From: Gammaproteobacteria bacterium
GTDB lineage: Bacteria; Pseudomonadota; Gammaproteobacteria; JBIOEC01
NCBI GenBank assembly: GCA_965279305.1
Contig: OZ257143.1
Coordinates: forward strand, 1,477,994 to 1,541,993
Reading direction: 5' to 3'
Length of the DNA: 64,000 bases
Each line of letters starts with the position of its first letter. The stretch's first letter is position 1. The notes under the pieces are model-generated. The model worked only from the letters and a program-made list of their open reading frames with translations, ran no database searches and was not told the origin of the DNA. Shown in pieces: positions 1 to 18,683 of this stretch. The translations under genes were made by a program, and so were the position numbers.

Positions 1-491
1 TGGCTTTTCAGTATCCTGTTGAAATTCCCGGTGTAAGCAATATCAATTTCTTAAAAGCCTCTGTTAATGCGGTTAGAAAAGCGCAAGGTAAAGAGGAATT
101 AGATGCGGTTTCTTTACTAAGCCAAGCGAAACAAAAAATGGCGGCACAAGGATTAGATCCAGATTTTTTATACCGTTCAGTGAATGAAGGTTTTTCGGGC
201 GGCGAGAAAAAGCGTAATGATTTAGTGCAAATGCTAATGCTTGAGCCTTCTCTTGCGATTTTAGATGAAATTGATTCGGGTTTAGATGTGGATGCTCTTC
301 AAATGGTTGCTAAAGGCGTAAACGCTATGCGGGATGAACATAGAGGATTTTTACTCATTACCCATTATCAGCGTATTTTGAATTTTATTATTCCGGATTA
401 CGTACATATTTTTTCTCAAGGAAAAATCGTAAAATCAGGCGGAAAAGAATTAGCGTTAACCGTAGAAGCAGAAGGTTACACAGGGTATTAA
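1..491 (+). CDS. sufC: Fe-S cluster assembly ATPase SufC, C-terminal part (5' end lies outside the window)
   Basis: The frame continues upstream of the annotated Met back to nt 3 (AFQYPVEIPGVS...). It contains the ABC signature SGGEKKRNDLVQML, the Walker B/D-loop ILDEIDSGLDVDAL and a THYQRIL H-loop, consistent with SufC, and sufD and sufS follow. Confidence 0.85.
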   Translation, partial: AFQYPVEIPGVSNINFLKASVNAVRKAQGKEELDAVSLLSQAKQKMAAQGLDPDFLYRSVNEGFSGGEKKRNDLVQMLMLEPSLAILDEIDSGLDVDALQMVAKGVNAMRDEHRGFLLITHYQRILNFIIPDYVHIFSQGKIVKSGGKELALTVEAEGYTGY

Positions 492-492
492 T

Positions 493-1671: not shown

Positions 1672-2881
1672 AGCTGACTTTCCTGGATTACATCAAGAAG
1701 TCAACGGACAACCCCTGATTTATTTTGATAATGCAGCTACCACTCAAAAACCTTTATCAGTCATTGAAGCTGTTGATCACCATTATCGATTTGATAATGC
1801 TAATGTGCACCGTGGTGTTCATGTTTTAAGTAGCCGCGCGACCCATGCTTTTGAAAAAACTCGCTCTTTGCTGGCAGAGTTTATTAATGCTGAGTACTTA
1901 CATGAAGTGATTTTTACTCGAGGAACCACTGAAGCGATTAATTTAATTGCTTACTGTTACGGCTTACCTTTTTTGAAAAATGGCGATGAAATTCTGATCA
2001 CTACGATGGAGCATCACGCAAATATTGTGCCCTGGCAAATGGTATGTGAACAAACAGGCGCTACACTTAAAGTAGTTCCTTTAGTAGCTGATGCAGATAG
2101 TGGTGAGTTAGATAGAGATGCGTTTAGCGCACTGTTAAGCAAAAATACCAAAATAGTTTCGTTTCCTCATATCTCTAATGTCTTAGGGACTATTAATCCT
2201 GTTGCGGAATTGATTGCAGAAGTGCGAGAAAAAACCTCTGCTATTGTGGTGATTGATGGTGCGCAAGCGATTGCTCATCTTCCTATTGATGTACAAGCAT
2301 TGGATTGCGATTTTTATGTGTTTTCAAGCCATAAAATGTATGGTCCATCAGGTATTGGTATTCTTTATGGTAAAACTGCTTTGCTAGAACGTATGCCGCC
2401 TTTTCAATTCGGTGGCGAAATGATTAAAAGCGTTAGCTTTGAACATACCGAATATAATGATCTTCCTTTTAAATTTGAAGCAGGAACACCTAATATTGAA
2501 GGGGTAATTGGTTTGGGTGCTGCAGTAGAATATCTTAAAAAAGCTGATGTTAAAAAACTAGCCGCTCAGGAAAAAGAATTATTAAACTATGCCACTGAAC
2601 AAATGCAAAATATTCCTAATATCCGTATTTTGGGAACATCAAAGCATAAAGCAGCTATGATTACGTTTGTGATCAAGGGCATTCCGGCGCAAGATATTAG
2701 TACTTTGCTGGATATGTCGGGTATTGCGATTAGAGTAGGGCATCATTGTGCTATGCCTTTACATGAGTCTTTAGGGCTTAGCTCTTCTGTGCGCGCTTCT
2801 TTTGCTTTTTATAATACTAAAGAAGAAATTGATAGATTTATTATTGCTTTGAATAAAGCGCTAAAGGTGTTACATGCATAA
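1661..2881 (+). CDS. sufS: Cysteine desulfurase SufS (PLP-dependent, group II)
   Basis: It has the PLP-lysine motif SSHKMYGPSGIG and the catalytic cysteine loop RVGHHCAMPL. At 406 aa and inside the suf operon, it fits SufS. Confidence 0.9.
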   Translation: MASRADFPGLHQEVNGQPLIYFDNAATTQKPLSVIEAVDHHYRFDNANVHRGVHVLSSRATHAFEKTRSLLAEFINAEYLHEVIFTRGTTEAINLIAYCYGLPFLKNGDEILITTMEHHANIVPWQMVCEQTGATLKVVPLVADADSGELDRDAFSALLSKNTKIVSFPHISNVLGTINPVAELIAEVREKTSAIVVIDGAQAIAHLPIDVQALDCDFYVFSSHKMYGPSGIGILYGKTALLERMPPFQFGGEMIKSVSFEHTEYNDLPFKFEAGTPNIEGVIGLGAAVEYLKKADVKKLAAQEKELLNYATEQMQNIPNIRILGTSKHKAAMITFVIKGIPAQDISTLLDMSGIAIRVGHHCAMPLHESLGLSSSVRASFAFYNTKEEIDRFIIALNKALKVLHA

Positions 2882-3419
2882 AGCACCGGTTGTATTAACT
2901 CGCGAAGTTGAAGCATTGCTGATCCCTTCTGCAACGCCTGTGATGTTACGAGAAGGTGAAGTAGTGAGAGTTACCCAAGCTTTAGGTGGCGCTTATACGG
3001 TGCAAGTGGGTGGTAATTTAGCCCGTATTGAAGGTAAAGATGCCGATGCTTTAGGTTTAGAAATAGAAGAAGCGTGTTCTACTCTTGAAAAAGTAGCAGA
3101 CGGTCCTGTAGAAGTTGAAGTTTTATGGGAAGCGCTTAGAACGTGTTACGACCCTGAAATTCCAGTGAATATTGTGGATTTAGGTTTAATTTATAAATGT
3201 GAAGTAGTTGCAGTTGATGCTACTCATAACAAAGTAGAAATTGAAATGACACTGACGGCACCCGGTTGTGGAATGGGCCCTGTATTGGTATCCGATGTAA
3301 GAAACAAAATCGAAAAAATAAAAAATGTGACAGAAGTAGATGTACAATTAGTATTTGACCCGCCCTGGGATCAATCGCGAATGAGTGAAGCCGCTCAACT
3401 CCAGTTAGGTTTATTATAA
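2874..3419 (+). CDS. sufT: DUF59/MIP18-family Fe-S assembly protein (SufT-like)
   Basis: The C-terminal half carries YDPEIPVNIVDLGLIY, the DUF59 signature. It overlaps the sufS stop by 8 bp, indicating translational coupling. Confidence 0.6.
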   Translation: MHKAPVVLTREVEALLIPSATPVMLREGEVVRVTQALGGAYTVQVGGNLARIEGKDADALGLEIEEACSTLEKVADGPVEVEVLWEALRTCYDPEIPVNIVDLGLIYKCEVVAVDATHNKVEIEMTLTAPGCGMGPVLVSDVRNKIEKIKNVTEVDVQLVFDPPWDQSRMSEAAQLQLGLL

Positions 3420-3448
3420 TTGCTGGTGGAAAGTAGGAAGTATCTACT

Positions 3449-4882
3449 ATGTTTAATTTATTTAATTGCTTTAGGAGCCGCCAAAAAACTCCATTATTTA
3501 CTGATTTTGCTTTATCTCCTTTGATGAAGGATCCTCCTTATATCCCTTTGACAGAAATACCTGCCTTAGTAGAACCAGAAAAGCCTGAAACATTAATCGT
3601 GCTATCTCTAGATGCAGATGGGATGGTTTTTAATCCCCGTTGGGTTGCATATAAACTAGATTGTATAAAAAGAAATATCGCATGTGATAATGATAGTATT
3701 TTTAAGTTCAATAGGCCATTGGTGGGTTATATTCTTGAGGTTTTACTTGAGCATGGTGTTGATTCTGCTCAGGTAATGGTTGGGTCCATGCGCCAATCAA
3801 AATTTGCTGATAATCATAATATAGAAAAATTTCCAGGAACGGGATCGTATTTTTATTGGTTAGAAATGTTTTGTAACTTTTTTAATGAAGAGTGCAAAGA
3901 CGATAATCTCTCATATCGATTAAAGCTTAACCGTTATTTACTATCAGATACTTATAGTGATACTTCTCATGAATTTAGTTTCATCAATGCGCTTGCTGGA
4001 CAAGGTCTTTCTGGTATTGAACTTATTGAGTCTGTAAGTAAAGTTGATAGAGGAAAGTTCGGTATTTTATATGCGCAAATGTTTAAGATAGCTACCGAAA
4101 ATCCAAATAAAAAAATCATATATCGGTTTGTCGATGATCACCAGGAAACGTTAGATGCTTTATATGATATTTTTAGAAAAAACATACGGTATTTGCCTCC
4201 AAACGTATCTCTTGAAATAGTACGCCATTATTACAATTCTCTAGGAGAACCTGTCATTGATAGATCGCGTTATATTATTCACCCTGATCCTAAAAATATA
4301 ATGGATGAATGCTATGAAGAAACGTTGAGAAAAATAGCTAACTATGCAGAAGAAGGAAGAGATATCTATTTTGACTTAGAGTTGCAAGATGAGTTTCAGG
4401 GGTTTAGAGAGAAGATAAACGTACTTAGAAAAGTAGAAGTGATTGTACCTAATAATATTGATAGGTTGCATAGTCTTAGAAAAGAAGTGGAATCTTTGTA
4501 TGCCGGTTTGTTAGAACATTATTTTAGTTTTGATGATGATGGGATAGCTGATTGTATGAGCTCTGTTTTTTCAGAAATTCGGACTTTATATCATATCTAT
4601 ATCAAAGAGTCTGGTCGTTCAAACTTGGAATATTCTTTTGAAGCCATGAATGATTTTTGTTTTATGAAATTAATTTTATCGTATGTGAAAAACTTACTTG
4701 AAGGGCGTTTTGAAAATGGTTTGGTTTCCGGTTGTAGTCAATCTAATATAGAAAATATAGTAAAGGGTAAAATGGGGCTTTATAATACAGCTTCTTTGGC
4801 ATATGCTCTAAACACTCTTTATAATATAATAGTTTTCCCTACTGCTCCTGTAAAAGAAAATTTGACTCCTGTGGCAGGTTAA
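3449..4882 (+). CDS. Hypothetical 477-aa protein with no recognisable domain, inserted into the suf/rpsD core block; effector candidate
   Basis: It is a long clean ORF with local codon usage and no conserved motif I can recognise. Its position between housekeeping genes suggests an accessory insertion. Confidence 0.5.
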   Translation: MFNLFNCFRSRQKTPLFTDFALSPLMKDPPYIPLTEIPALVEPEKPETLIVLSLDADGMVFNPRWVAYKLDCIKRNIACDNDSIFKFNRPLVGYILEVLLEHGVDSAQVMVGSMRQSKFADNHNIEKFPGTGSYFYWLEMFCNFFNEECKDDNLSYRLKLNRYLLSDTYSDTSHEFSFINALAGQGLSGIELIESVSKVDRGKFGILYAQMFKIATENPNKKIIYRFVDDHQETLDALYDIFRKNIRYLPPNVSLEIVRHYYNSLGEPVIDRSRYIIHPDPKNIMDECYEETLRKIANYAEEGRDIYFDLELQDEFQGFREKINVLRKVEVIVPNNIDRLHSLRKEVESLYAGLLEHYFSFDDDGIADCMSSVFSEIRTLYHIYIKESGRSNLEYSFEAMNDFCFMKLILSYVKNLLEGRFENGLVSGCSQSNIENIVKGKMGLYNTASLAYALNTLYNIIVFPTAPVKENLTPVAG

Positions 4883-4896
4883 CTTAGAAGGCAAGT

Positions 4897-5205
4897 ATGG
4901 CAAATTGGATCAGCATTAATACCGTAGATAGTTTTACAGACACTCCCAGACAGTTTCTAGATAAAGACAATCTGCATATAGCGATATGTAAAATAGGGGA
5001 GCAATTTTTTGCTTTTGAAAGCATGTGTACTCATGCCATGTATGAGCTAGATGATGCGCCTATAGAAGGTAATGAGATAATCTGCCCTTTGCATGGAGCT
5101 CGATTTTGCTTAAAAACAGGAGAGGTAATGTCACCCCCCGCCTATGAAGACTTAAGGGTGTTCTCAACTCGCGTAAGGGAAGGTCTAGTTGAAATAGAGC
5201 TTTAG
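4897..5205 (+). CDS. Rieske [2Fe-2S] ferredoxin-like protein
   Basis: The 102-aa protein has both Rieske boxes, CTHAMYEL (CxH) and CPLHGARF (CxxH), at the correct spacing. Confidence 0.8.
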   Translation: MANWISINTVDSFTDTPRQFLDKDNLHIAICKIGEQFFAFESMCTHAMYELDDAPIEGNEIICPLHGARFCLKTGEVMSPPAYEDLRVFSTRVREGLVEIEL

Positions 5206-5209
5206 ATAA

Positions 5210-5467
5210 CTACTCATTGTTAAGTTGGTCGATAATAGTTTCAATTGAATAATCATTTGCCATGCCGCTTTCTTCACCTTCGATTAAAGCTGAACGTAAA
5301 GCGCTTAATTTGACTTCTCGTTCCTCCAGCATTCTAAGGCCAGCACGAACAATTTCACTAGCAGAGCCATAGCGACCGGATGATATCTGTTTATCTACAA
5401 AAAGATTGAAATGTTCGCCTAAGGCGATACTGGTTGTTTTTGCCATAAATTCCTCATGGATTACCAA
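5210..5467 (-). CDS. parD: ParD-family type II antitoxin (RHH/CopG fold)
   Basis: The 85-aa protein carries [28 protein letters not shown], matching the Caulobacter-type ParD1 motif (YATASEIVREAVRDWL). No parE follows it. Confidence 0.8.
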
Positions 5468-5504
5468 TAGATAGTATATGTTGGTAGTTTGATTTTGGCA
5501 AGCG

Positions 5505-5537
5505 GGGAGAGAAAATGCACCCCTCCAGAAGGAGGGG
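5505..5537 (-). terminator. Rho-independent terminator downstream of rpsD
   Basis: A perfect 7-bp GC stem CCCCTCC / GGAGGGG (5520-5526 / 5531-5537) with loop AGAA is followed on the minus strand by TGCATTTTCTCT. Confidence 0.5.
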
Positions 5538-5557
5538 CAACAAGAGTGAGTAAAAAC

Positions 5558-6178
5558 TTATAAACCTACGCGTGAGTAGTACTCAACGATTAAGTTCAAT
5601 TCTACTTGTAAGGGCACGTCGTCTGATTGAGGCGCCTGGGTTACGGTAGCGGTAAACTCTTTAGTGTTTACGCTTAAGTAGGCTGGTAAGCTTAAAGAAG
5701 GGTTTTCGATGGTTTCGATTACCAACGGCACACCTTTAGAGCTTTCTTTAATACTAATCACATCGCCTGCTTCAACATGATAGCGAGGGATATTCACTAA
5801 TTTACCATTTACTTGAATATGCTTATGAGACACTAGCTGACGAGCAGCGGGTAGGGTAGGTGCAAAACCTGCACGGAACACTACGTTATCTAAGCGAGAT
5901 TCCAACATTACTAGCATTTCTTTACCAGAATCACCTTTAGAGCGAGCCGCAGCACGCATATAGCCTCTTAACTGACGTTCACTAACGCCATAGTTAAAGC
6001 GAACTTTTTGTTTTTCACGTAAACGAACACCGTATTCAGTGCTGTTTTTGCCCTTACGGGTAGCGCCATGCTGACCAGGGGGATTTTTACGTTGATTTGG
6101 GGTCTTGCGGGTTAAACCGGGCAAGTCGGTTTGTAAACTACGTAATACTTTTAAGCGTGCGCCTGTAAATCGTGACAT
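5558..6178 (-). CDS. rpsD: 30S ribosomal protein S4 (stand-alone, Bacillus-type)
   Basis: The 206-aa protein has MSRFTGARLKVLRSL..PGQHG....EYGVRLREKQKVRFNYGV..RQLVSHKHIQVNG, which is close to firmicute-type S4. It is monocistronic rather than part of an alpha operon. Confidence 0.85.
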   Translation of the reverse strand: MSRFTGARLKVLRSLQTDLPGLTRKTPNQRKNPPGQHGATRKGKNSTEYGVRLREKQKVRFNYGVSERQLRGYMRAAARSKGDSGKEMLVMLESRLDNVVFRAGFAPTLPAARQLVSHKHIQVNGKLVNIPRYHVEAGDVISIKESSKGVPLVIETIENPSLSLPAYLSVNTKEFTATVTQAPQSDDVPLQVELNLIVEYYSRVGL

Positions 6179-6487
6179 ACTATTCTATATCCATCCTTTA
6201 AATAATTATTAGCCCAGCAGTACTGCCTATACCGACCAGCCACTGGAAAGTCGCCCAAAATAGCATATCCAAGCCTCAATTGCAAGGGAGCCTAGGCTTT
6301 TTTGGCCTTCTGATCAGCTAGTATCTAATCGCTAAGTTGGTTAGCGTGTATTATAATTGTCTCTATTATTTAAAACCGCTTTGGCGGGTGATAGGGGCAA
6401 GAAAATGTCAGCTTCTTATATTCTCATTGCATTACAGTGGTTGCTAGCGCCAAGTATAGGGTGTAGAATGCTCCACTTGTTATCTAT

Positions 6488-6564
<77 letters not shown>

Positions 6565-7035: not shown

Positions 7036-7797
7036 CTAAGCATATTCTCCCTTTGTCCTCTCAGGCCATTGCCTATAACAATGAACCTGATGAGGGCTAA
7101 AATGACCCTGATAGGCCAATGCCGCTTGGTAAGATGGATCTAAAGAAATCAATGTTACCTGATAGGAATCATTTTCAATAATGAAGGGCTCTGCTGAAAG
7201 TATATTTATTTTATCTAGTGGATAACTAAGTCCACATCCTAAACATTTTAATAGCGCCTCCTTTTGTGTCCAAATCTCAAAAAATAGCTTATTTTGATCT
7301 TTATGTGGAACTATGGAAAGTGTCTTATATTCTTCAGCCGAAAAGAAATGCTGAGCTATGCTCATAAAATCAAAGTTTGAGATCATAAATTCTATGTCTA
7401 CCCCAATGTTTTGATATTGAGAAATTGAGATCAATATATAGTTACCTGCATGTGAAAGATTAAATTGAATATCCCTTATGTTTTGATGGTGTTTTATCCG
7501 CGGTTTTCCAAAGGATGAATAGACAATATGGATATCAGTAGGAGGTAAAGCTAAATATTGCCCTAGTAAGTAACGCAACGCTCCACGAGCAAGAATGTAA
7601 CGTTGGCGATCCTTCTCAAATATATATTTTTTTGATTTCTCCTGTTCATCGGCAGCCAAAAAAGACTGGAGTTGCAATTGATGAGGGGAAAGTTGATCGA
7701 GTGTAAAGCACCATAAATGAATGTTATCACTCGGTAAAACCCAGTTATTCAGACGTAAGGGAGGTGTTATTGGAAGTTCAATTTTTAAAAAAAACAT
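7036..7797 (-). CDS. Sfp-type 4'-phosphopantetheinyl transferase
   Basis: It has the GVDIEFM (G-x-D) motif and the WTQKEALLKCLGCGL (W/F-x-x-KEA-x-x-K) motif. It sits near an NRPS carrier domain. Confidence 0.8.
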   Translation of the reverse strand: MFFLKIELPITPPLRLNNWVLPSDNIHLWCFTLDQLSPHQLQLQSFLAADEQEKSKKYIFEKDRQRYILARGALRYLLGQYLALPPTDIHIVYSSFGKPRIKHHQNIRDIQFNLSHAGNYILISISQYQNIGVDIEFMISNFDFMSIAQHFFSAEEYKTLSIVPHKDQNKLFFEIWTQKEALLKCLGCGLSYPLDKINILSAEPFIIENDSYQVTLISLDPSYQAALAYQGHFSPHQVHCYRQWPERTKGEYA

Positions 7798-8696: not shown

Positions 8697-10133
8697 ATGT
8701 TCCAGAAGTATGCTTCATTTGCCGGGTTGAGTCTTGGTTTCTTTATTATTATGATGGACATAACCACTGTACCATTGATGTACCCAACCCTTATGAATGT
8801 GTTTGATGTTAATCCGGCTATGGTCGCTTGGGTCAATAATATTTATCTCATTACTTATGCTTCATTTATTCTTTTAGGAGGTCGGCTTGGAGACTTCACA
8901 AATCGAAAGATTGTATTACTGATTGCTTATTTGGCTATAGGGGTAGGAGCAGCAATTAGTGGTGCAGGACAAAGCTTGTCAGATGTAATTATTGGTCGCG
9001 CATTGATGGGTGTAGGAGCGGGATTATTGACACCACAGAGCATGGCATATATTTCTATTCTTTTTGCGAGTGGAGGTAGAGGAACTGCACTGGGTATCTG
9101 GGGAGCTGTAGCTGGTATTGCCGCTGCTACTGGGCCTATTGTTACCGAGATATTCTTGACAATGGGGGATTGGCGTTGGGTGATGTGGATCAACATTCCT
9201 ATCGTGCTTGTTTGTTTTTTAATTTCCGTTTTGAGTTTACCCAATGTTCCCGGCCGTGGTATTAAATTCTGGGACACTACTGTAAGTGTTTTGTGTGGAG
9301 CGTGTTTGGCAGGAATTATTCTTGGAATCCAATTCATTAATGCGTCTAAATCAATTATAAGCATAGGTGGTGCTCTTTTTATAATGGGAGGTGTGGCTAT
9401 AAGTGTCTTGATTAGAAATGAATTGAAGAAAAAACAGGGATACATTTTGTCACCCGAATTATGGGTTGATAATATTTTTCTCAGAATATGTTTAATTTCA
9501 GGGCTACTTGGATTAAGTCTAACAGCTTTTTATCTTCCTTTAGTATTTCTTTTAGACGTACGAATGAATTTAGGCCCTGTGGCTATAAGCATGGTCATGT
9601 TTACTATCGCGCTGGCTAATGCATTAGTTGGACCATTCGCAGGTAATCTTTCAGACCGTATGGAGCCAGAAATAATTATTAGACGTGGTTTGATTTTATT
9701 TGCAATTGCAAATGCTTTACTTGGTTTTATTGGTATATTCCTGCCTGAAGGAATTTTGGCCTTAGTAGCACTTTTTGCCGTTATGTTTATTGCTGGAGCG
9801 GGTACTGGTTTAGCTTTTGCGCCTCTTGCTAATTTAGCCGTGGGTCGTGCTCAAGTAGCAACTCTAGGTCGTGCTGCCGCTTTTTTCAACTGTGCGCGCC
9901 AAATATCAAGTGCATTAGGTGGTGTGATTGTAGCTATTGTTTTTGATTGGATAATACGCTTACAATTAGAACATGACATTGAAATAACTACTACAACCCT
10001 TCGTGAATCATCGACTATTACTGCTAATGCCACTTTAGCTTGTTTTTTGTTTATTGCTATTAGTTTGTCGGTAGCTGCTTATCTATCTTGTAGAAGTGAG
10101 CAGGAGCTTGTAGTAGATGAATCTGGGGCTTAG
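8697..10133 (+). CDS. MFS transporter (14-TMS drug:H+ antiporter-like), putative exporter
   Basis: It carries MFS motif A, GGRLGDFTNRKI, and is hydrophobic and helix-rich throughout. It lies in the NRPS locus. Confidence 0.8.
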   Translation: MFQKYASFAGLSLGFFIIMMDITTVPLMYPTLMNVFDVNPAMVAWVNNIYLITYASFILLGGRLGDFTNRKIVLLIAYLAIGVGAAISGAGQSLSDVIIGRALMGVGAGLLTPQSMAYISILFASGGRGTALGIWGAVAGIAAATGPIVTEIFLTMGDWRWVMWINIPIVLVCFLISVLSLPNVPGRGIKFWDTTVSVLCGACLAGIILGIQFINASKSIISIGGALFIMGGVAISVLIRNELKKKQGYILSPELWVDNIFLRICLISGLLGLSLTAFYLPLVFLLDVRMNLGPVAISMVMFTIALANALVGPFAGNLSDRMEPEIIIRRGLILFAIANALLGFIGIFLPEGILALVALFAVMFIAGAGTGLAFAPLANLAVGRAQVATLGRAAAFFNCARQISSALGGVIVAIVFDWIIRLQLEHDIEITTTTLRESSTITANATLACFLFIAISLSVAAYLSCRSEQELVVDESGA

Positions 10134-10471: not shown

Positions 10472-11530
10472 TTGACACAATCGAAGGTATTATTGATGAC
10501 AAATTCAACTTCTTTTGGGATAAGTGCATTTGGATATTCATTTGGCGAAAAACAAAATGTGGAAGAAACTGCATGCAATTTTGTTTCTGATCCGGAAAGA
10601 GTTTTTAAATGGGATTGTCAAACCTACTATCGTTCACCCCCTGATCGATTTGCCCTTGATCTGGCAACTGATGCGGCACGTGAAGCTATAAGTAAAGCAA
10701 ATATCGACCCTAATAGTATAGATTTAGTAGCATTTGCTTCAGCAGAAATAGCAGAATATTTATACTGGGATTCCTCAGTTGCACTTGCACGTGCACTGGG
10801 CATTGAAAGAACGCAAACAATGCTACTAAATAATGAAGGTTGCAGTGCAGGGATAAGAATCTTTGGAGCCATTGCAGGAGTCTTTGCAACGCAACCGGAA
10901 ATTCAAACTGTTTTAGTAGTAATAGTTAACCGTGTGAGTGAATATCACAGGAATCGTATGAAGGTTGTTAATTGCATACTAAGCGACGGAGCTGTAACTG
11001 CCGTTTTACAACGTGGCCATCCTCATAATCAATATTTGGCTTCAGACCATTTCGTCTATCCAGAATTTTGCGATTTTTTTCGAATGGATTATGGTGGAAC
11101 AAAAGCCCCCATTACTCCTGCAGGTTGGACTTGCCATGATGAGCATGGTTACGATAAAATATATGAACACTTTGGTGATGATATAGAGAGAATGCAAAAC
11201 TTTTTAACAGTACAGCGTAATGAACGGTTAGCAGAGGTGGTTCAACGTTCTTGTGCACGTGCTAATATATCTAAAGATGATATTTCACATTTCTTTTATG
11301 TTGCTGATTCTCGCCCAGGAGCTATTGCAGAAATTGTAAAACCTTTTGGAATTCCTATCGAAAACACTAACCTTGAATTAGCAAGAATGTATGGGCATAT
11401 GGGGGCTGCTGATCAATTTTTTTCTTTAGGAAAATTTATAGAAAGTAGACATATGGGACCGGGAGATATAGCCGCCATGGCGGGTATTTCATCCGGAATT
11501 CAATGGTGTTCCACTTTGTTTAGAGTATAA
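10472..11530 (+). CDS. FabH-like (KAS III family) thiolase-fold protein with non-canonical catalytic residues
   Basis: It aligns to FabH along its length: EGCSAG to AACAGF (catalytic Cys), SDGAVTAVL to GDGAGAAVL, and the C-terminal GISSGIQWCSTLFRV to GGGFTWGSALVRF. The canonical His and Asn positions appear substituted (YVADS and YGHMG). Confidence 0.65.
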   Translation: MTQSKVLLMTNSTSFGISAFGYSFGEKQNVEETACNFVSDPERVFKWDCQTYYRSPPDRFALDLATDAAREAISKANIDPNSIDLVAFASAEIAEYLYWDSSVALARALGIERTQTMLLNNEGCSAGIRIFGAIAGVFATQPEIQTVLVVIVNRVSEYHRNRMKVVNCILSDGAVTAVLQRGHPHNQYLASDHFVYPEFCDFFRMDYGGTKAPITPAGWTCHDEHGYDKIYEHFGDDIERMQNFLTVQRNERLAEVVQRSCARANISKDDISHFFYVADSRPGAIAEIVKPFGIPIENTNLELARMYGHMGAADQFFSLGKFIESRHMGPGDIAAMAGISSGIQWCSTLFRV

Positions 11531-11534
11531 TCTG

Positions 11535-14500
11535 ATGAATGAAACTATTTTCCAAGCATTTGAAGAACAAGTTAAAAAAACACCTGATTCTATTGCACTT
11601 CTTTTTAAAGAAGAAAAACTTAGCTATAAAGAATTAAATGAAAAATCTAATCAAGTCGCTAGATCCCTGCGTAATCTCTACAAAAAAAATATAGGATTCG
11701 ACCTTAAACCGGATACTCTTATTGGCATTTGTGTTGAACGTAGTTTAGACACCGTTATTGGAATATTAGGAATATTAAAAGCGGGTGGTGCATATGTGCC
11801 AATTGATATTGCCTATCCAGAAGGACGAATCCAATTTTTATTAGAAGATACTAAAAGCCCTTTTATCGTGACGCGGAGGCATTTGCAAGAGAAATTAAAT
11901 AAAATCCATAACAACACATTGCATCAGTTTTTCTTAGACGATCTTTCTTATGATAATGAAAGCAAAGATAATTTAAGTATTATACTAGAACCCAATCATT
12001 TGGCCTACATTATATATACATCAGGAACTACCGGAAAACCAAAAGGTGTTATGCAGACTCATCATAATGTTATGCGCCTATTTACGGCAACACAGGATGT
12101 ATTTGAATTTAACGAAACAGATGTATGGACATTATTCCATTCCTATGTATTTGATTTTACGGTGTGGGAGTTATTGGGTGCTTTAATATATGGTGGAAAA
12201 CTGGTAATACCCAGTCTTGATGAGGTTAAAGATACAAGTAAGTTTTATGATTTATGCGAAAAACATAAGGTTACTGTGTTAAATCAAACACCATTAGTCT
12301 TTTATCAATTTATTGAGGAAGCAATTAATCGTAAAGAAAAACTGAATAGTTTAAGATGCATAATTTTTGGTGGAGATTATCTTAATATTTCTCAATTGAA
12401 ACCTTGGTGGAATCAGTATGGTTTTCTAAAACCTAAATTAATTAATATGTATGGAATTACTGAAACAACGGTATTTGTTACACATAAAATCCTCACTGAA
12501 GCGGATATAAATAAAGGTTCTATCATTGGCACTGTAATTAAAGATCAAAAAGCTTATGTTTTGGATGAGAATTTAAAACCCGTACCCGTCGGAGTTGTTG
12601 GAGAATTATATGTGGGTGGTGCTGGTCTTGCCAGAGGATATTTGAATAGAGAAGAAGTAACACAGGAAAGTTTTATTATCAATCCTTATGCCACAAATGA
12701 AGATCTATTGAAAGGCTATAACCGTATTTATAAAACGGGAGATTTAGTCAAATGGTCTACAAATGGGGATTTAGAATATATCGGCCGTAATGATAAACAA
12801 GTTAAACTACGCGGCTTTCGAATAGAACTGTTAGAAATTGAAAGTATTTTAAACACTTTTACTGGAATAAAACAAAGCACGGTATTGTTAGATAAGAAAA
12901 GCAACAATCCATATTTAATAGGTTACTATCGTTCAGAAGCAAAAATAGATGAGGAAATATTACGATCACATTTAGCTAAACATCTACCGGATTATATGGT
13001 CCCCAACGTTTTAGTCCATTTAAACAAGTTTCCCATTACTATCAATGGAAAATTGGATGTAAACGCATTACCTTGTCCCAATTTTAATTCTACTCAATCT
13101 TCCATAACACTCAAAAATGAGATTGAAAAGGATGTGGCTGCAATTTGGTCGGAAATTTTAGGAATTGATATAATTGGCACAAATGAAGATTTCTTCAGAA
13201 TTGGAGGTGACTCAATTGTAAGTATAAAACTAGTCCTAAAATTGAGAAATAAAGGGTATCATTGTAATGTAAAAAATATATTTGAAAATAGAACCATTGA
13301 AAGCCTAAGCCACTTTTTGAAATCATCTGATATACAATCTAATAAAATTGAAGCAGAACAAGGGTTGTTAACTGGCGAGGTTGATTTATTACCGATTCAA
13401 CAATGGTTTTTTAAAAACAAATTTGATAAGCAGAATCATTGGAATCAATCTTTTTTAATCAAGGTTCCATTATTGGATGTTAATAAATTAAATCATGTCC
13501 TTGAGAAATTAATTGAGCATCATGATGTGTTACGGTTGGTTTTCAAAAAGACAACAAATTTTTATAAACAATTTTATTTGAAAGAAATTAAAATTCCTCT
13601 CATTAATACCTTGGATAGATCTGAACTCTCTGATCAACAACTAATTAATATATTTACCAAATGGCAAAGTGATTTTGATATAGAGAATGGTCCTTTATGG
13701 AAGATAGGCTATGTTACTGGTTATAAAGATAATACCGCTCGGATATATTTTGCCTTGCATCATCTTATTATAGATTCTGTTTCATGGAGAATTTTGATTG
13801 ATCATTTGAAATGTTTGTATGAAAGTAAGGAATTACCCCCAAAAACCAGCAGCTACCGTCAATGGGTGAGGGCTGTGCAACATTATGCGACTTCGAATAA
13901 TCAACAATTAAGTTATTGGGAACAACATTACATCCCTCAAGTACTAGAAGATGATTTTAAATTTCTTAATGAAAATACCGCACATAATATTAAAAATATT
14001 AATCTTGTCACATTAAATGAAAGTTTGACGAAAATTTTATTAAGGAAAGCCAACAAAGCCTATCATACCGAAATTAATCACTTGTTACTCACTGCCTTAG
14101 GATGTGCACTAAGGGATTTAACGAATAAAAGTGAACATATTATTCGTCTTGAAGGGCATGGTCGTGAAAAAATCAATGAAATTATAGATGTTAGTCAAAC
14201 TGTCGGCTGGTTTACAATACTTTATCCTGTCAAGCTTATGGTGAATGACTCATTAGAAAAGTCTATTCTATCTATCAAAGAAATTTTAAAAAGTATTCCT
14301 GACAATGGAATTGGATACAGTGCACTTAAATATGCAAATAGCGAAAATTCTCTTTGTAAACATTGTCCATCGGGAATTAGCTTTAATTACTTGGGCCAGT
14401 TTGATACAGAAACCAGTTTGTGGCAAATTGCCGCAGAAAACTCTGGAAATAATTACGGTGCTAATGCTGATGGAAATCTACTAACGATCACAGGCTGGGT

Positions 14501-14648
14501 TATTGATGGTAAATTAGAATTTGAAATCGTAAGTTGTATGAACGCAATCAAGAGTGAACAATTTTCAAAATTCTTTCAGTCTATTTTAGAAGAAATAATA
14601 GTACATTGCGCAGATTTAGTTAGTAGCGACAAAAAGGCGTTAGTTTAA
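11535..14648 (+). CDS. Non-ribosomal peptide synthetase, single A-T-E module (adenylation, peptidyl carrier, epimerization)
   Basis: A-domain cores are present: A3 LAYIIYTSGTTGKPKGV, A4 FDFTVWE, A5 NMYGITETT, A7 YKTGD, A8 GRNDKQVKLRGFRIELLEIE and A10 NGKLD. The carrier domain has FFRIGGDSIVSIKL, the GGDSI type that precedes E domains. The epimerization cores E1 PIQQWF, E2 HHLIIDSVSWRIL, E4 EGHGRE, E5 QTVGWFTILYP, E6 GIGYSAL and E7 FNYLGQFD are all present. No condensation or thioesterase domain is seen. Confidence 0.9.
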   Translation: MNETIFQAFEEQVKKTPDSIALLFKEEKLSYKELNEKSNQVARSLRNLYKKNIGFDLKPDTLIGICVERSLDTVIGILGILKAGGAYVPIDIAYPEGRIQFLLEDTKSPFIVTRRHLQEKLNKIHNNTLHQFFLDDLSYDNESKDNLSIILEPNHLAYIIYTSGTTGKPKGVMQTHHNVMRLFTATQDVFEFNETDVWTLFHSYVFDFTVWELLGALIYGGKLVIPSLDEVKDTSKFYDLCEKHKVTVLNQTPLVFYQFIEEAINRKEKLNSLRCIIFGGDYLNISQLKPWWNQYGFLKPKLINMYGITETTVFVTHKILTEADINKGSIIGTVIKDQKAYVLDENLKPVPVGVVGELYVGGAGLARGYLNREEVTQESFIINPYATNEDLLKGYNRIYKTGDLVKWSTNGDLEYIGRNDKQVKLRGFRIELLEIESILNTFTGIKQSTVLLDKKSNNPYLIGYYRSEAKIDEEILRSHLAKHLPDYMVPNVLVHLNKFPITINGKLDVNALPCPNFNSTQSSITLKNEIEKDVAAIWSEILGIDIIGTNEDFFRIGGDSIVSIKLVLKLRNKGYHCNVKNIFENRTIESLSHFLKSSDIQSNKIEAEQGLLTGEVDLLPIQQWFFKNKFDKQNHWNQSFLIKVPLLDVNKLNHVLEKLIEHHDVLRLVFKKTTNFYKQFYLKEIKIPLINTLDRSELSDQQLINIFTKWQSDFDIENGPLWKIGYVTGYKDNTARIYFALHHLIIDSVSWRILIDHLKCLYESKELPPKTSSYRQWVRAVQHYATSNNQQLSYWEQHYIPQVLEDDFKFLNENTAHNIKNINLVTLNESLTKILLRKANKAYHTEINHLLLTALGCALRDLTNKSEHIIRLEGHGREKINEIIDVSQTVGWFTILYPVKLMVNDSLEKSILSIKEILKSIPDNGIGYSALKYANSENSLCKHCPSGISFNYLGQFDTETSLWQIAAENSGNNYGANADGNLLTITGWVIDGKLEFEIVSCMNAIKSEQFSKFFQSILEEIIVHCADLVSSDKKALV

Positions 14649-15719
14649 CTTTCTTTCTTGTGCGATTTTTCTAAAATTTTCAAGAGCTTCAGCAGCAGTT
14701 AATTCTTGGCCTTGTAAAACATCGTTAGCGGGTATAATTTTATAGCGCATATTTTCTGGTATTGAATATTTTGTTGGCAAATACAATTGATCTAGCCCTA
14801 TACCAAAAGCACAATTTTCTTGCCCTAAAACTCGAAAATAATGCCTTAATCGATTAGATTCATCTTTAATAATAAATTTTTTCATTTCTGGATCATGACA
14901 TCCATATGTCAAATAATACTCCACATTGTTATTTTCCATTTTACGAACAATATCAACTAAATTGTTATAAAGAACTTCTCCCGGATAAAGCTCCCTATAC
15001 ATTCCTGAATTTCCTGAACGTGCTCTTGCAGTTTCAGGGTAAGGTGGGTTCATTACAACAAAGTCGCCCGTTTGGAGATCAGATAATGCATGCAAAAAAT
15101 CACCACTTTTTAAAATAACATTATTTTTGTTCAAAAGATTTGAGGTTCTATCAACCTCTTCAAAAAAAACTTCTAATGATAGAGAGGCTTCATCAAGGTA
15201 ACGTTGTATTGTTTTTCCTTTTATATTAACTTCTCTATAAACAATATTACCTTGATCATCATGAAGAAGTATCCCACCCCAAGAATGATTAATAATAAAG
15301 GGTAATAATAATGATTTTTCATCCAAATTTGCTTGATTATAATCACTAATTATTTTTAAAAAAAATTCTTTTTTGGTATCTGAGTGGTCATATTCGCGTA
15401 TCAATGATTCATACTTTGATTTTACTCTCTTTGGTGCTTCTTTGATTAGGCATAGAGTATTAATGAGTGCTTCATCACTATCATTAATGATATATTGGTC
15501 TGCTAGACCTAGTTCCATCGCTGCTAAACTCCATGAGGCACTTCCAGAAAGCGGATCAAAACAACGTTTAAATTTTTTGCCTTGCGAATTTGCTATAATG
15601 ACTGCAAAATGATCATCAAGTAAGTTCTTGTCAATTTCCATCCGACCAGAGTGCATGGGTAGTGTTAGGTTTCTATTTCCAAGATAATGTAAGAGTCCGC
15701 CTTTATTTTTTGATAGCAT
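14640..15719 (-). CDS. Dam-family (D12 class, alpha-type) DNA N6-adenine methyltransferase, apparently orphan
   Basis: Motif I CFDPLSGSASWSLAA matches Dam EPFVGAGSVFLNT. YIINDSDEALINTLCLIK matches Dam YILADINSDLISLYNIVK. Motif IV is VVMNPPYPET (DPPY/NPPY). No restriction endonuclease gene is adjacent. Its stop overlaps the NRPS stop by 9 bp, convergently. Confidence 0.8.
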   Translation of the reverse strand: MLSKNKGGLLHYLGNRNLTLPMHSGRMEIDKNLLDDHFAVIIANSQGKKFKRCFDPLSGSASWSLAAMELGLADQYIINDSDEALINTLCLIKEAPKRVKSKYESLIREYDHSDTKKEFFLKIISDYNQANLDEKSLLLPFIINHSWGGILLHDDQGNIVYREVNIKGKTIQRYLDEASLSLEVFFEEVDRTSNLLNKNNVILKSGDFLHALSDLQTGDFVVMNPPYPETARARSGNSGMYRELYPGEVLYNNLVDIVRKMENNNVEYYLTYGCHDPEMKKFIIKDESNRLRHYFRVLGQENCAFGIGLDQLYLPTKYSIPENMRYKIIPANDVLQGQELTAAEALENFRKIAQERKLN

Positions 15720-16023: not shown

Positions 16024-17655
16024 ATGTCAAATGACCTGATTTATCTAAAAGAAGACGCTTATTTCGAACCTTTGATAAATCACTGGTTTGCGTGGTCTTA
16101 TCTTATTCCACCGGTTCAGGCTTCACGCTATATCACTAACACTCATAAAAGGATCATGTCTTCCTTCGTTGAAGACACGCAAGTGCACATCTTTGGGTCA
16201 AAAGAACCAGCACTCGCAGGCGGTGACTTTCTCAACGCTCGTGACGATCAGGTGAAAGACATCAAAGCATTGCTGGCGGAGTTCGATGAAAAGCATGCCG
16301 ATGTAGTTAAGCTTTCTGAAGCAGTACAGGAGCTCGACGAGATGATCCGCGCACATATCAGCGGCGAGTCTATTGAATATATGTATGAAAAAGTTCCTCT
16401 GCCGCTCAAAGGCTTCGTCGAAATCGGTATGGATATGAACCACAACCCCTGTTATCGTTTGCTGGAGCATTTGCTTTACAACTCAGAGCATTATCGCAAA
16501 TCACTACAAAGTATCTACTTCGGTTTACTTTCCAAGATCGAAGAGCGTCCTTTCTGTTTTTCGACACCGCGTTTGGCCGATGAGAACCACATTCAATTGG
16601 CGATGGATTTCTGTGCACCAGAGGTAGATATTTTAGTCAAGTCGCGCACTGAAGGCGTACCGTGCGAGATGGTGAATGATATATTTGCGCGCTTCGAGAC
16701 TCGCGGCGGCCTTGATTATCGCGAATTGTTCACTACTGAGCCGCCGTCAAGACGCCGTGAGCCGGTGAGCGATGACAGCTTGAAATTGACTTTCCTCGGT
16801 CATGCCTCGTTTATGATAGAAACCAAAGATATCAATATTTTAATTGATCCGGTAATTCCCATTAGAGGCAAAAAATATGCCGATGACGTGATTAGCTATT
16901 CTGAGCTACCCAAGAAAATCAACTATATTTGCATTACCCACAATCACCATGACCACTATAACCTTGAAACCTTGCTACAGTTGCGCCATAAAACGGACAA
17001 GCTGGTTCTACCCATCAACAATGGTGGAACATTGCCGGATCCGTCGATGAAGCTGATAGCCAAACAATTGGGCTTTAAAGTAATTGAGGTGGACGACTTT
17101 GATGAAATCGAGATCCCAGATGGCAAGATAACGGCGATCCCATTTCTTGGCGAACACGGCGACCTCAATGTGCGTTCAAAAACCGTGTGGCTTATAGAAC
17201 TCAAAGGTAAGAAATACTTCTTCGGCGCCGATGCCACCAACTATAATCCGCAAATGTACCGTCATGTCCAAAAGTTGGTTGGGGATGTCGATGTATTGGC
17301 TATCGGAATGGAATGTGTCGGAGCTCCCTATTCTTGGCTCTATGGTGCACTTAACACTAGGGACGTCAGTAAAAACATCACAAATTCACGTCGTCTGAAC
17401 GGCTCCAATGCCGATCAGGCTTATCATATGGCAGATACTTTCAATGCTAAACAAGTTTATCTTTATGCAATGGGCATGGAACCTTGGTACAAGTACTTTA
17501 TGGGCTTAGTTTATAACGAGAACTCACAGCAAATAATTGAGTCAGATAAGATGATTAAGCGCTGTGAAAATAAAGGAATACCATGTCAACGCTTAGCTCT
17601 TAACTGCTACATTCTGACAGATTTAGGTAGTAGCCACAAAATGGCGCCAGTTTAA
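16024..17655 (+). CDS. Metallo-beta-lactamase-fold protein, 543 aa, with a roughly 255-aa N-terminal domain; possible CmlA-like non-heme diiron beta-hydroxylase
   Basis: The C-terminal half has KLTFLGHASFMIE...ILIDP and the ITHNHHDHY (HxHxDH) metal-binding motif. The size and domain order (helical N-domain then MBL fold) resemble CmlA-type beta-hydroxylases that act on carrier-tethered amino acids. It sits next to the NRPS. Confidence 0.6.
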   Translation: MSNDLIYLKEDAYFEPLINHWFAWSYLIPPVQASRYITNTHKRIMSSFVEDTQVHIFGSKEPALAGGDFLNARDDQVKDIKALLAEFDEKHADVVKLSEAVQELDEMIRAHISGESIEYMYEKVPLPLKGFVEIGMDMNHNPCYRLLEHLLYNSEHYRKSLQSIYFGLLSKIEERPFCFSTPRLADENHIQLAMDFCAPEVDILVKSRTEGVPCEMVNDIFARFETRGGLDYRELFTTEPPSRRREPVSDDSLKLTFLGHASFMIETKDINILIDPVIPIRGKKYADDVISYSELPKKINYICITHNHHDHYNLETLLQLRHKTDKLVLPINNGGTLPDPSMKLIAKQLGFKVIEVDDFDEIEIPDGKITAIPFLGEHGDLNVRSKTVWLIELKGKKYFFGADATNYNPQMYRHVQKLVGDVDVLAIGMECVGAPYSWLYGALNTRDVSKNITNSRRLNGSNADQAYHMADTFNAKQVYLYAMGMEPWYKYFMGLVYNENSQQIIESDKMIKRCENKGIPCQRLALNCYILTDLGSSHKMAPV

Positions 17656-17834
17656 CTCCTTCACAAAAAGTGCTTGTGCGCTAATTATAACGTCACTAAC
17701 TTATATATGCCAAGATGAGGAAGGGGTAACTTTGCACACGTAGTACTTGGAATGGCGAGGAGCGGTGATTTAGGTGAGTTAGAAGGGCTGGTTATGGTAA
17801 TTATCTATACAATCCGGGGCCATTAGGAATTTCC

Positions 17835-18683
17835 TTATAAAATAGTACATTTGATTCCATTATTATCAGTCACCGGCGCATGTACTGTTACTGTTCCAGG
17901 TTGCGTATTGACATCAACTCTACCTGTTACTGCGCCAGGCTCTACAGTAAATGTAGGATTTATCGCATTAGGTTCAATACGAGCAGCAGCGAGTGCAATC
18001 CCATTTCTACTTAAACCAACAGATAAACCCGAAGTTACTTCTTTTAGCATGTTGCTGAATGAAACTACTATTTGATAGAAAGAAATCCCCAATTTATTTA
18101 TTAATGAGTTAATTGAAAAAGCTATCATTAATAAAGCTGCTATTTGATATTTGTAATCAGTAGGATCAGTTCTATAGTGAATGACTATTCCTATAAAGGC
18201 AATAGCTACGGCCATTCCAATGCTCGGTTGTCTTTGAAAAAAATTTACTGTATTTAGATTTGCAGGAGTCGGTGCTGCTAAGCGGGCTTGAAGTCCATCT
18301 ATAAGATGCTGAGCATTACTTAATTCTCTTTCTCGCTGAAGATCATCTCTTATCCGGGCCGTCAAATAAGCACGACCGGGATCCCAATCTTGAATAAACC
18401 TAGCTAAATCAGAATTTCCATATTGGTTCGCTATATCTACTGCCAGGCAATTATAAGTTGCAGTCCTTATTGTACGATCTGCTCCATTTTCTAGTAGTAT
18501 AGTTGCAGCCTCTCGGAATCCTCTCCAGCCACAATATATCAAAGCGCTAGGCTCATTTAAGCCACCGCTAGGGGGTAATCTAACATTAATATTTGCTCCT
18601 CTATCCAGACAGTCTAATATTTTTCGAGGATCATTTTTGGTAACTGCATCAAAAAATTCAGCATCAATAGGACTTAATGGCAT
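17835..18683 (-). CDS. Ankyrin-repeat protein with a central hydrophobic segment and C-terminal CaaX box (CTIL); effector candidate
   Basis: It has ANK repeats (GANINVRLPPSGGLNEPSALIYCGWRGFREAATILLENGADRT), a transmembrane-like stretch (AVAIAFIGIVIHY...IAALLMIAFSI), and its last four residues are C-T-I-L. Confidence 0.7.
   Translation of the reverse strand: MPLSPIDAEFFDAVTKNDPRKILDCLDRGANINVRLPPSGGLNEPSALIYCGWRGFREAATILLENGADRTIRTATYNCLAVDIANQYGNSDLARFIQDWDPGRAYLTARIRDDLQRERELSNAQHLIDGLQARLAAPTPANLNTVNFFQRQPSIGMAVAIAFIGIVIHYRTDPTDYKYQIAALLMIAFSINSLINKLGISFYQIVVSFSNMLKEVTSGLSVGLSRNGIALAAARIEPNAINPTFTVEPGAVTGRVDVNTQPGTVTVHAPVTDNNGIKCTIL

Follow-up and report, generated by a model that had tools for sequence, protein, structure and literature searches.

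The window analysed here is a stretch of 64,000 nucleotides (nt) from a Gammaproteobacteria bacterium (GTDB lineage Bacteria; Pseudomonadota; Gammaproteobacteria; JBIOEC01), taken from assembly GCA_965279305.1 (contig OZ257143.1, positions 1,477,994 to 1,541,993 of the forward strand). It holds a small biosynthetic cluster around one nonribosomal peptide synthetase (NRPS) module, and our subject is the gene that follows this module on the same strand, an open reading frame (ORF) of 543 amino acids (aa) at 16024-17655. The NRPS gene (11535-14648, plus strand) ends 1.4 kb upstream of it, and a 359-aa ORF on the opposite strand, here called orf359, lies in between. A sequence-only reading of this DNA had proposed that the 543-aa ORF, as a neighbour of the NRPS, encodes a CmlA-type diiron beta-hydroxylase, and that its N-terminal domain or else the whole gene was acquired horizontally. 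We found that the ORF is real and encodes a CmlA/FrsH-family diiron beta-hydroxylase by sequence, ligand set and fold, that its base composition is foreign to the window throughout, and that it ends in a second copy of the NRPS 3' end.

A diiron monooxygenase of the CmlA/FrsH family

The gene was assigned to the non-heme diiron monooxygenases of this family by Pfam, by a phmmer search of the Protein Data Bank (PDB) and by Foldseek. The frame and the THNHHDHY string reported for it were both confirmed on the sequence; the string lies within ITHNHHDHY at aa 304-312, and the HxHxDH motif, read from the sequence, occupies aa 306-311 (16939-16956, plus strand). Pfam placed a CmlA_N domain (PF18456) at aa 7-240 (16042-16743, plus strand) with an E value of 1.3e-76 and all profile positions covered (1-232 of 232). 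It is followed by the core of a catalytic domain of the metallo-beta-lactamase (MBL) fold at aa 254-431 (16783-17316, plus strand; Pfam Lactamase_B_2 and Lactamase_B_3). The anticipated order of an N-terminal domain, here of about 245 aa, and a C-terminal MBL fold thus holds, and it is common to all members of the family. The part of the protein that is homologous to the family runs from aa 1 to about 525 (nt 16024-17598).

In the PDB search the best matches were FrsH (8a90, E 2e-113) and CmlA (4jo0/5kik, E 3e-102), both over the full length. Hydrolases of the NAPE-PLD and TM1162 types matched in the same search at E 1e-6 to 1e-7, and only over the MBL part (aa ~250-430). We then used an AlphaFold (AF2) model of the protein, made from 25 homologs (alignment A2), which had a predicted local distance difference test (pLDDT) score of 83.4 and a predicted template modelling (pTM) score of 0.87. 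With this model Foldseek ranked FrsH and CmlA at the top, again over the full length, with template modelling (TM) scores of 0.83-0.89. Scored per query (TMq), FrsH reached 0.87 and CmlA 0.82-0.84, and generic MBL proteins such as those of the UlaG and NAPE-PLD types stayed at 0.33-0.37. Both sequence and fold therefore bear out the CmlA-type identity first suggested for the gene. The result named beforehand as refuting it, a generic hydrolase as best structural match with the diiron ligands missing, did not come about.

Enzymes of the CmlA family use a reduced Fe2 centre, held by three His and four carboxylates in an MBL fold, and O2 for the beta-hydroxylation of aminoacyl-S-carrier-protein substrates. 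The diiron ligands of CmlA, which we take to be H305, H307, D309, H310, E377, D403 and E430, agree with the sequence alignment. Reading the window protein through its alignment with FrsH and CmlA, we found all seven putative iron ligands in place: H306, H308, D310 and H311 in the HxHxDH motif, E377 (codon 17152-17154), D403 (17230-17232) and E430 (17311-17313, all plus strand). These seven residues and A482 are invariant across the 25 sequences of alignment A2, so that the ligand set is complete and conserved as the earlier assignment implied. In CmlA, Glu377 replaces the fourth His of the MBL site and Ala482 replaces the last (PMC7846560). The window protein carries both Glu377 and Ala482, the CmlA-type exchanges that set the family apart from the Zn hydrolases. 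The characterised relatives FrsH and HynC hydroxylate L-amino acids that are bound to a thiolation (T) domain, Leu in the case of FrsH and Tyr and Leu in that of HynC (PMC7794379, PMC8252469). From these features the protein would be expected to bind iron and to act as a beta-hydroxylase, and we refer to it below as the hydroxylase.

Comparison with the two enzymes of known structure showed both close likeness and clear differences. CmlA of Streptomyces venezuelae (chloramphenicol; PDB 4JO0, 5KIK) has the same domains and the same set of seven ligands, matches the model at TM 0.83-0.87, and is also found beside a single-module NRPS. The two proteins are, however, only about 33% identical, and the C-terminal 18 residues of the window enzyme are foreign to the family. 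The partner of CmlA, CmlP, has the domain order adenylation (A)-T-reductase (R) and loads p-aminophenylalanine, whereas the presumed partner in the window is an A-T-epimerisation (E) module with a Thr-type code. FrsH of Chromobacterium vaccinii (FR900359; PDB 8A90) is the best match in sequence and structure, with TM 0.87-0.89 and about 35% identity. FrsH and HynC (hypeptin) serve multi-module depsipeptide lines that have condensation (C) and thioesterase (TE) domains, whereas the window has neither domain.

The family comprises 282 clusters at 50% identity (E <= 1e-30 in an exhaustive search of 1.84 billion representatives). Several representatives (P0363, P0365, P0371, P0392, P0402 and others) reach 1000-1200 aa, begin with the hydroxylase part, and appear to be natural fusions to further domains.

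Foreign composition and a duplicated NRPS 3' end

The base composition of the hydroxylase gene differs from that of the DNA around it, and the difference resides in the third codon position. The gene has a GC content of 0.442, and its GC1 (0.513) and GC2 (0.325) are ordinary for the window. Its GC content at third codon positions (GC3) is 0.487, compared with 0.273 +/- 0.036 in the 35 other ORFs of at least 150 aa (z = 6.0), and its Karlin codon-bias distance is 0.491, whereas ORFs no shorter than 400 aa lie at 0.235 +/- 0.041 (z = 6.2). A GC content as high as that of the gene is attained by just 0.3% of 1632-nt windows, every one of which overlaps it. The GC shift that had been noticed by eye is therefore real and significant, on the windowed plot as well as in codon usage.

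It is not confined to 16200-16800, as had been supposed. In 300-nt windows GC runs at 0.41-0.50 from 16000 to about 17600, compared with 0.27-0.37 in the flanking genes. The figure of 38% given for the rest of the gene and the locus fits the gene only at its ends, over ~180 nt at the 5' end and ~270 nt at the 3' end (0.38-0.39); the genes adjoining the hydroxylase have a GC of 0.32. The N-terminal domain (aa 1-250; GC 0.465, GC3 0.504) and the C-terminal domain (GC 0.422, GC3 0.473) both lie about 6 standard deviations (SD) above the window mean in GC3. Furthermore, identity to the closest homolog is even across the protein, 78% in the N-terminal and 80% in the C-terminal domain, and this uniformity speaks against a chimera of domains. 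The proposal that the N-terminal domain alone was imported is thus not upheld, and the alternative that the whole gene was acquired fits the data. Four antisense ORFs of 65-94 aa do lie within the gene, as described; stop-free stretches of 60 codons or more number 3.1 per kb here, a high density, yet one that falls within the range of the window (0-5.4) and is not unique to this gene.

The resident genes of the cluster are native in GC3 (0.244 for the NRPS, 0.235 for a KAS III-like gene and 0.284 for a major facilitator superfamily (MFS) exporter gene, both described below). In four related loci from other genomes, the homologous hydroxylase gene has a GC3 of 0.32-0.42, which equals that of its own neighbours and never exceeds it. 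The donor of the window gene must therefore have been richer in GC than any of these four closest known carriers.

A second line of evidence came from a repeat search of the window, which revealed a 40-nt direct repeat (family D1) with 35/40 identical positions and a spacing of 3007 nt. Copy 1 (14611-14650, plus strand) is the 3' terminus of the NRPS gene, 12 codons and the stop, ending in ADLVSSDKKALV. Copy 2 (17618-17657, plus strand) is in the same frame and closes the hydroxylase ORF, supplying its final 12 codons together with the stop and ending in TDLGSSHKMAPV. When indels are allowed in the alignment of the copies, the repeat spans about 70 nt (copy 1 ~14603-14675, copy 2 ~17609-17690). 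The repeat pattern had two matches in the window and none in 100 shuffles.

The hydroxylase is chimeric at its C-terminus. Homologs terminate in '...IPCERLVGKKxxxx' at 531-534 aa, and the window protein departs from them after IPCQRL, at about aa 524. Its tail (aa 526-543, ALNCYILTDLGSSHKMAPV; 17599-17655, plus strand) has no family homology, is 0-17% identical to the homologs, and owes its last 12 codons and stop to the copy of the NRPS 3' end. Among the best 150 matches from the 1.84 billion representatives, none aligned beyond query aa 536, and the model is poor here, with pLDDT <50 at aa 535-543. The 'VHCAD' at the end of the NRPS E domain aligns with the 'RHCAE' of the E domain of bacitracin synthase. 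Since this sequence aligns to the ends of other E domains, the copy in the NRPS gene is the native one and the copy in the hydroxylase gene is the duplicate. These features, the duplicated 3' end as ORF tail and the A-T-E order of the NRPS, had both been missed in the sequence-only reading.

The two copies bracket a segment of about 2.9-3 kb that contains the divergent pair of orf359 and the hydroxylase gene, and the ends of both genes come from the repeat. The gene orf359 (14640-15719, minus strand) encodes a weak homolog of Dam-like DNA adenine methyltransferases; it matches NCBIfam TIGR00571 (dam) at E 4.6e-12, which is under the family cut-off, has an NPPY motif, and gave no Pfam match. 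Its stop codon lies in copy 1, as do its last codons, of which the final 11 run antisense to the repeated 3' region of the NRPS gene. No homolog of orf359 was found beside any of the related hydroxylase loci that were compared, and the flanks of the insert, the intergenic region and orf359 itself had no similarity to any of 93 related loci. It probably stands outside the pathway. No integrase was present in the bracketed segment, and the sole RNA gene nearby, a tRNA-Met gene, lies 9.5 kb off. Taken with the GC3 result, the repeat and the chimeric tail support the view that the hydroxylase gene was acquired as a whole by a cluster that already existed.

The NRPS module, its neighbours and related loci

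The NRPS is a single module of 1037 aa in which Pfam detects AMP-binding, PP-binding and Condensation domains, the last of which is an E domain by its solved relatives. The C-terminal domain matched the E domains of BacC, GrsA, TycA/B and PvdL at E 1e-59 to 1e-70, compared with ~1e-7 for C domains. It contains the E-domain motifs HHxxxD, EGHGRE and FNYLG, and the core motifs of the A, T and E domains are intact, including the phosphopantetheine Ser560 (codon 13212-13214, plus strand). The order A-T-C, which the Pfam label 'Condensation' would imply, was excluded, because the solved relatives identify the C-terminal domain as an epimerisation domain. No C or TE domain was found near the NRPS. 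The initiation modules GrsA and TycA have the same A-T-E order and a similar size (1098 aa), and their E domains match at E 1e-63 to 1e-69. These enzymes pass D-Phe to a downstream C domain, however, whereas the window offers no C-domain partner.

The specificity code of the A domain is DFWNIGMVFK. It was read against a fragment of GrsA; as a control, the two Thr modules of PvdD were read in this way, and each gave DFWNIGMVHK. The nearest NRPS homologs P0123, P0124, P0127 and P0151 gave DFWNIGMVHK as well, and P0137 gave DFWNVGMVHK. DFWNIGMVHK is listed as a Thr-type signature (PMC12283262). Among 119 NRPS homologs, NMYGITETTVH was found 121 times and TTVF never, and the window sequence reads TTVFVTH where its relatives have TTVHVTY. 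Two changes underlie this difference: His to Phe at GrsA position 331 (aa 314; TTT, codon 12474-12476, plus strand), which takes two nucleotide substitutions and was seen only in the window gene, and three residues on (aa 317) a conserved Tyr to His. We did not find the code DFWNIGMVFK in the literature searched. By its sequence, the A domain is a descendant of Thr-activating domains with a unique pocket change at position 331.

The closest match to the NRPS was 55% identical, and a search with the NRPS returned only modules of large assembly lines and no orthologous cluster. One of these relatives, P0137 (L005 10001-15331), has an NRPS module 47% identical to that of the window and a C-terminal MBL domain after a second Condensation-family domain. 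That MBL domain is not of the CmlA_N type, and is possibly another MBL-based release or tailoring domain.

Three further genes complete the cluster. A Sfp-type 4'-phosphopantetheinyl transferase (PPTase; Pfam ACPS and AASDHPPT_N) is encoded at 7036-7797 on the minus strand, an EhpJ-family MFS exporter of 478 aa, recognised by its identity to cluster MFS proteins, at 8697-10133 on the plus strand, and a KAS III-like acyltransferase of 352 aa, recognised by its PDB relatives and its match to EhpO, at 10472-11530 on the plus strand. The KAS III-like gene stops 4 nt before the NRPS start. The MFS protein is 65% identical to a cluster MFS protein of Microbulbifer variabilis, 58% to one from a JGI contig (L004) and 53% to Pantoea EhpJ, and beyond these cluster exporters no MFS protein of 72,556 plasmids reaches 30%. 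The best PDB relatives of the KAS III-like protein are ChlB3, CerJ and DpsC, and it matches Pantoea EhpO at E 3e-34 with 25% identity, the label EhpO resting here on gene order counted from EhpJ and not on a published sequence. It is 24-27% identical to the ehp-type members, which share 48-66% with one another. The EGC active-site Cys and a GHMG motif are common to the KAS III-like proteins of the window, M. variabilis (L001) and L004. Among the 30 largest ORFs, which span 493-57137 of the window, we found no phzA/B, D, E, F or G, no polyketide synthase and no further NRPS genes.

These genes pointed to the ehp cluster on plasmids of Pantoea agglomerans. This cluster makes D-alanylgriseoluteic acid and exports it through the MFS protein EhpJ, and griseoluteic acid is also known from P. 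variabilis, now M. variabilis (PMC3175449); the enzyme that joins the amino acid to griseoluteic acid is EhpO (PMC11310501). The window shares with ehp (EhpJ, EhpM, EhpN and EhpO) the MFS protein, for which EhpJ is by far the best plasmid match, and the logic of an A domain, a carrier and a KAS III-like enzyme. The residue in the ehp product has the D configuration (D-Ala), and the E domain of the window module would also yield a D-residue. Pantoea ehp, however, has neither a CmlA-type gene nor an E domain, and the window has no phenazine core. The ehp A domain and carrier are the stand-alone proteins EhpM and EhpN, whereas those of the window are fused as A-T-E, with an A domain ~29% identical whose nearest relatives are Thr modules of large NRPSs. 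In its gene content, the cluster resembles the aminoacylation and export half of phenazine clusters of the D-alanylgriseoluteic-acid type.

The relatives of the hydroxylase led to similar loci. The closest proteins are 64-79% identical and come from Cellvibrionales and Alteromonadales, and 0/80 of the best reference-genome loci belong to a close relative of the host. Most of them lie in Pseudoalteromonas-type NRPS clusters with the order penicillin amidase, hydroxylase, MacAB, sigma54 two-component system, ABC and type II thioesterase, and 64 of the related loci examined also have an A domain nearby. A plasmid origin of the hydroxylase was rejected, as the best plasmid matches are just 38-43% identical. 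The homologs are annotated at source as 'MBL fold metallo-hydrolase' or 'UlaG'.

Two relatives stand directly after A, T and KAS III-like genes in phenazine clusters, those of Microbulbifer (formerly Pelagiobacter) variabilis (74%) and L004 (77%, the second-closest homolog). Both clusters have the same set of components as the window, an EhpJ-type MFS gene included. They also contain a methyltransferase gene, an SDR gene and one that is ACAD-like, and are collinear with the ehp cluster of the Pantoea plasmids. They differ from the window in carrying phzA/B, D, E, F and G and EhpF/G-like genes, and in having A and T as separate proteins, with the codes DYWSLAAVFK and DYWSIAVVCK. In pelagiomicin A, a product of P. 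variabilis, griseoluteic acid is esterified with 3-hydroxyvaline, which would account for a hydroxylase gene that the Pantoea cluster, with its D-Ala product, lacks. L004 combines its full ehp-like phenazine cluster with shikimate-pathway genes, has a GC of 0.386 and encodes an F-box-like protein (L004 20829-21380), which suggests that its source is another eukaryote-associated bacterium with this chemistry.

Apart from the cluster, the 30 largest ORFs include Suf genes, fatty-acid-oxidation genes and many eukaryote-like ORFs. Genes at 19014-20747, 24518-26215, 30542-32665 and 36797-40627 encode a Ser/Thr kinase, tetratricopeptide repeat (TPR) proteins (one of 1276 aa) and a U-box and ankyrin protein. 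This eukaryote-like set suggests a host-associated lifestyle of the bacterium, an uncultured gammaproteobacterium. Together with a CaaX-type ORF described next, these genes call Legionella to mind, but that label was rejected, as the relatives found with SufS include no named Legionella. Next to the hydroxylase, a 282-aa ORF on the minus strand (17835-18683) appears ankyrin-like by eye in its N-terminal part and ends in a CaaX-type box (GIKCTIL at the stop), as do prenylated effectors of intracellular bacteria. It gave no Pfam or NCBIfam match, and its 3' end falls in the GC-richer stretch that adjoins the hydroxylase gene. A second GC-rich patch (0.50-0.55) was found at 20900-21400, in a gap of 757 nt between the kinase gene and a 989-aa ORF. 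The patch holds ORFs at 20975-21139 and 21046-21291 (plus strand), with a WD40-like repeat in a short ORF (LPDGRLISGSSDKDIRLWELGSGQCVSTLK). It has the appearance of a foreign gene fragment, possibly derived from a eukaryote. Just upstream of the PPTase and NRPS genes, the tRNA-Met gene (6488-6564, plus strand) may mark the edge of a variable region. A related contig (L092, here 10834-11924) has 86-95% nt identity over window positions 3-6517, ends inside this tRNA gene, and is longer by ~970 bp in the interval from rpsD to the tRNA gene.

Origin and role of the hydroxylase gene

Taken as a whole, we think it probable that the diiron hydroxylase acts with the adjacent A-T-E module and that its gene was added to the cluster later and in one piece. 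For the horizontal acquisition of the whole gene there is good evidence, in the high GC3 throughout the gene and in the four homologs that match their own neighbours. In the mechanism that we propose, the A-T-E module, as the most likely partner, would load and epimerise one small beta-branched amino acid, and the hydroxylase would add a hydroxyl group at its beta-carbon while it is tethered to the T domain. The tethered product would then pass to the EhpO-like KAS III acyltransferase and be exported by the EhpJ-like MFS protein, in parallel with the esterification onto griseoluteic acid in ehp. The gene would have come from a donor of higher GC and lost its original last 8-9 codons, so that it now ends in the copy of the NRPS 3' end. 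This arrangement could have arisen by one-sided homologous recombination, with DNA of a diverged relative in which the pair was already present, or by an insertion with a long target duplication.

Several observations weigh against this explanation. The Thr-type code weakens the pairing of module and hydroxylase, because Thr is already beta-hydroxylated; either the change of His to Phe makes the domain prefer an analogue that lacks the hydroxyl group, for example Val or 2-aminobutyrate, or this module is not the one that the hydroxylase serves. The opposite-strand orf359 keeps the hydroxylase from being co-transcribed with the NRPS, and neither an MbtH-like nor an acyl carrier protein gene was found in the gaps of the cluster, nor was a reductase partner for the hydroxylase seen. 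A single clean event is also difficult to reconcile with the GC3 of orf359 (0.206), which is the minimum of the window and native-like, so that one insertion from one donor is not a clean fit, or with the 144 nt past copy 2, which are also GC-rich (0.444). The native C-terminus of the hydroxylase has been replaced. Finally, the comparison of loci is limited by sparse sampling of the host lineage, where the relatives of SufS are 93% and 79% identical and the next, from a 'Gammaproteobacteria' metagenome-assembled genome, is 66%, and the sole related contig ends at the tRNA-Met gene before the cluster.

The rival explanations differ in how much of this evidence they can hold. One possibility, which we consider less likely than not by a good measure but take seriously, is that the locus began as a cassette of the ehp/pelagiomicin type that already had a CmlA ortholog, and that a foreign allele was swapped in by xenologous replacement anchored in the NRPS gene. 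Homology-facilitated illegitimate recombination would be its mode, with the 3' end of the recipient's NRPS gene left as the second copy of the repeat, and in this respect it refines the later-addition explanation. The MFS protein, 65% identical to that of Microbulbifer, is native in GC3, so that the ehp-like ancestry would predate the hydroxylase allele; the two repeat copies differ at 5/40 positions, a level of difference that the origin of one copy in a diverged relative would explain; and the hydroxylase falls in the same clade as those of ehp-like clusters. The KAS III-like protein and the A domain, however, have diverged from their ehp counterparts far more than the MFS protein has, and the replacement leaves orf359 within the segment unaccounted for. 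It is unlikely, on our estimate, that the gene is instead an intact-looking orphan, dragged in with foreign DNA and either not acting on the NRPS or decaying. The Thr-type code, the separate transcription unit with no obvious Shine-Dalgarno sequence, the loss of the native C-terminus and the lack of an orthologous cluster that would show a conserved pairing are in keeping with such a passenger. The ORF is nevertheless of full length and retains every family-invariant residue, its identity to relatives is even at 78-80%, and the cluster holds the same types of partners (A, T, KAS III-like and EhpJ-type MFS) as those of the closest homologs.

The remaining explanations question the foreign origin or the function of the protein itself. 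Selection on codon usage or expression of a vertically inherited gene could in principle raise GC3, and the gene for ribosomal protein S4 in the window is also codon-biased (B = 0.516, GC3 0.362). We regard this as very improbable, because the GC3 of the hydroxylase gene is far above that of the S4 gene, its homolog in four other genomes matches the neighbours, and a duplication scar brackets the gene and leaves its 3' end chimeric. Still fewer grounds exist for an import of the CmlA_N domain alone: the slightly higher GC of this domain would agree with a chimera, but GC3 is raised to the same extent in both domains, their identity to the closest homolog is nearly equal, and the two domains occur together in all family members. 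With near certainty, we can set aside the idea that the protein is one of the generic hydrolases of the MBL fold (UlaG, NAPE-PLD or TM1162 type) and does not act as an oxygenase. The automatic labels of its homologs and weak hydrolase matches, the only ones in NCBIfam, would favour it, but those hydrolases match only the C-terminal half, two His residues of the canonical MBL metal site (five His and two Asp) are exchanged (Glu377 and Ala482), and the CmlA_N domain is present.

In a more far-reaching reading, the locus might be a phenazine-less offshoot of an ehp/pelagiomicin cassette in an apparently eukaryote-associated bacterium, with specificity and tailoring having evolved together. A Thr-type A domain would have been retuned by the change of His331 to Phe to a substrate such as valine, the imported hydroxylase would restore the beta-hydroxyl group, and a unit of the D-3-hydroxyvaline type would be esterified by the KAS III-like enzyme onto an acceptor made elsewhere in the genome or supplied externally, and exported by the EhpJ-like pump. 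We offer this scheme as a speculation with a small chance of being correct in full.

The gene is a further member of a known enzyme family and not a new kind of system. Few members of that family have been characterised (CmlA, the teicoplanin-type enzymes, FrsH and HynC), and the automatic annotations 'UlaG' and 'MBL fold metallo-hydrolase' are here corrected for this clade of hydroxylases. Modest interest is added by the scar, by the cluster with ehp-type parts that lacks C and TE domains, and by the one-residue change in the A domain. The locus presents a clean, datable case in which a minimal NRPS cluster that already existed gained a tailoring enzyme, and the scar of the recombination can still be read. 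One pocket residue separates the specificity code of the presumed partner's A domain from that of its Thr-activating relatives and, if the pairing is functional, the locus would provide a simple system for the co-adaptation of A-domain specificity and hydroxylases that act in trans, and would show how KAS III-like enzymes off-load aminoacyl groups without C or TE domains.

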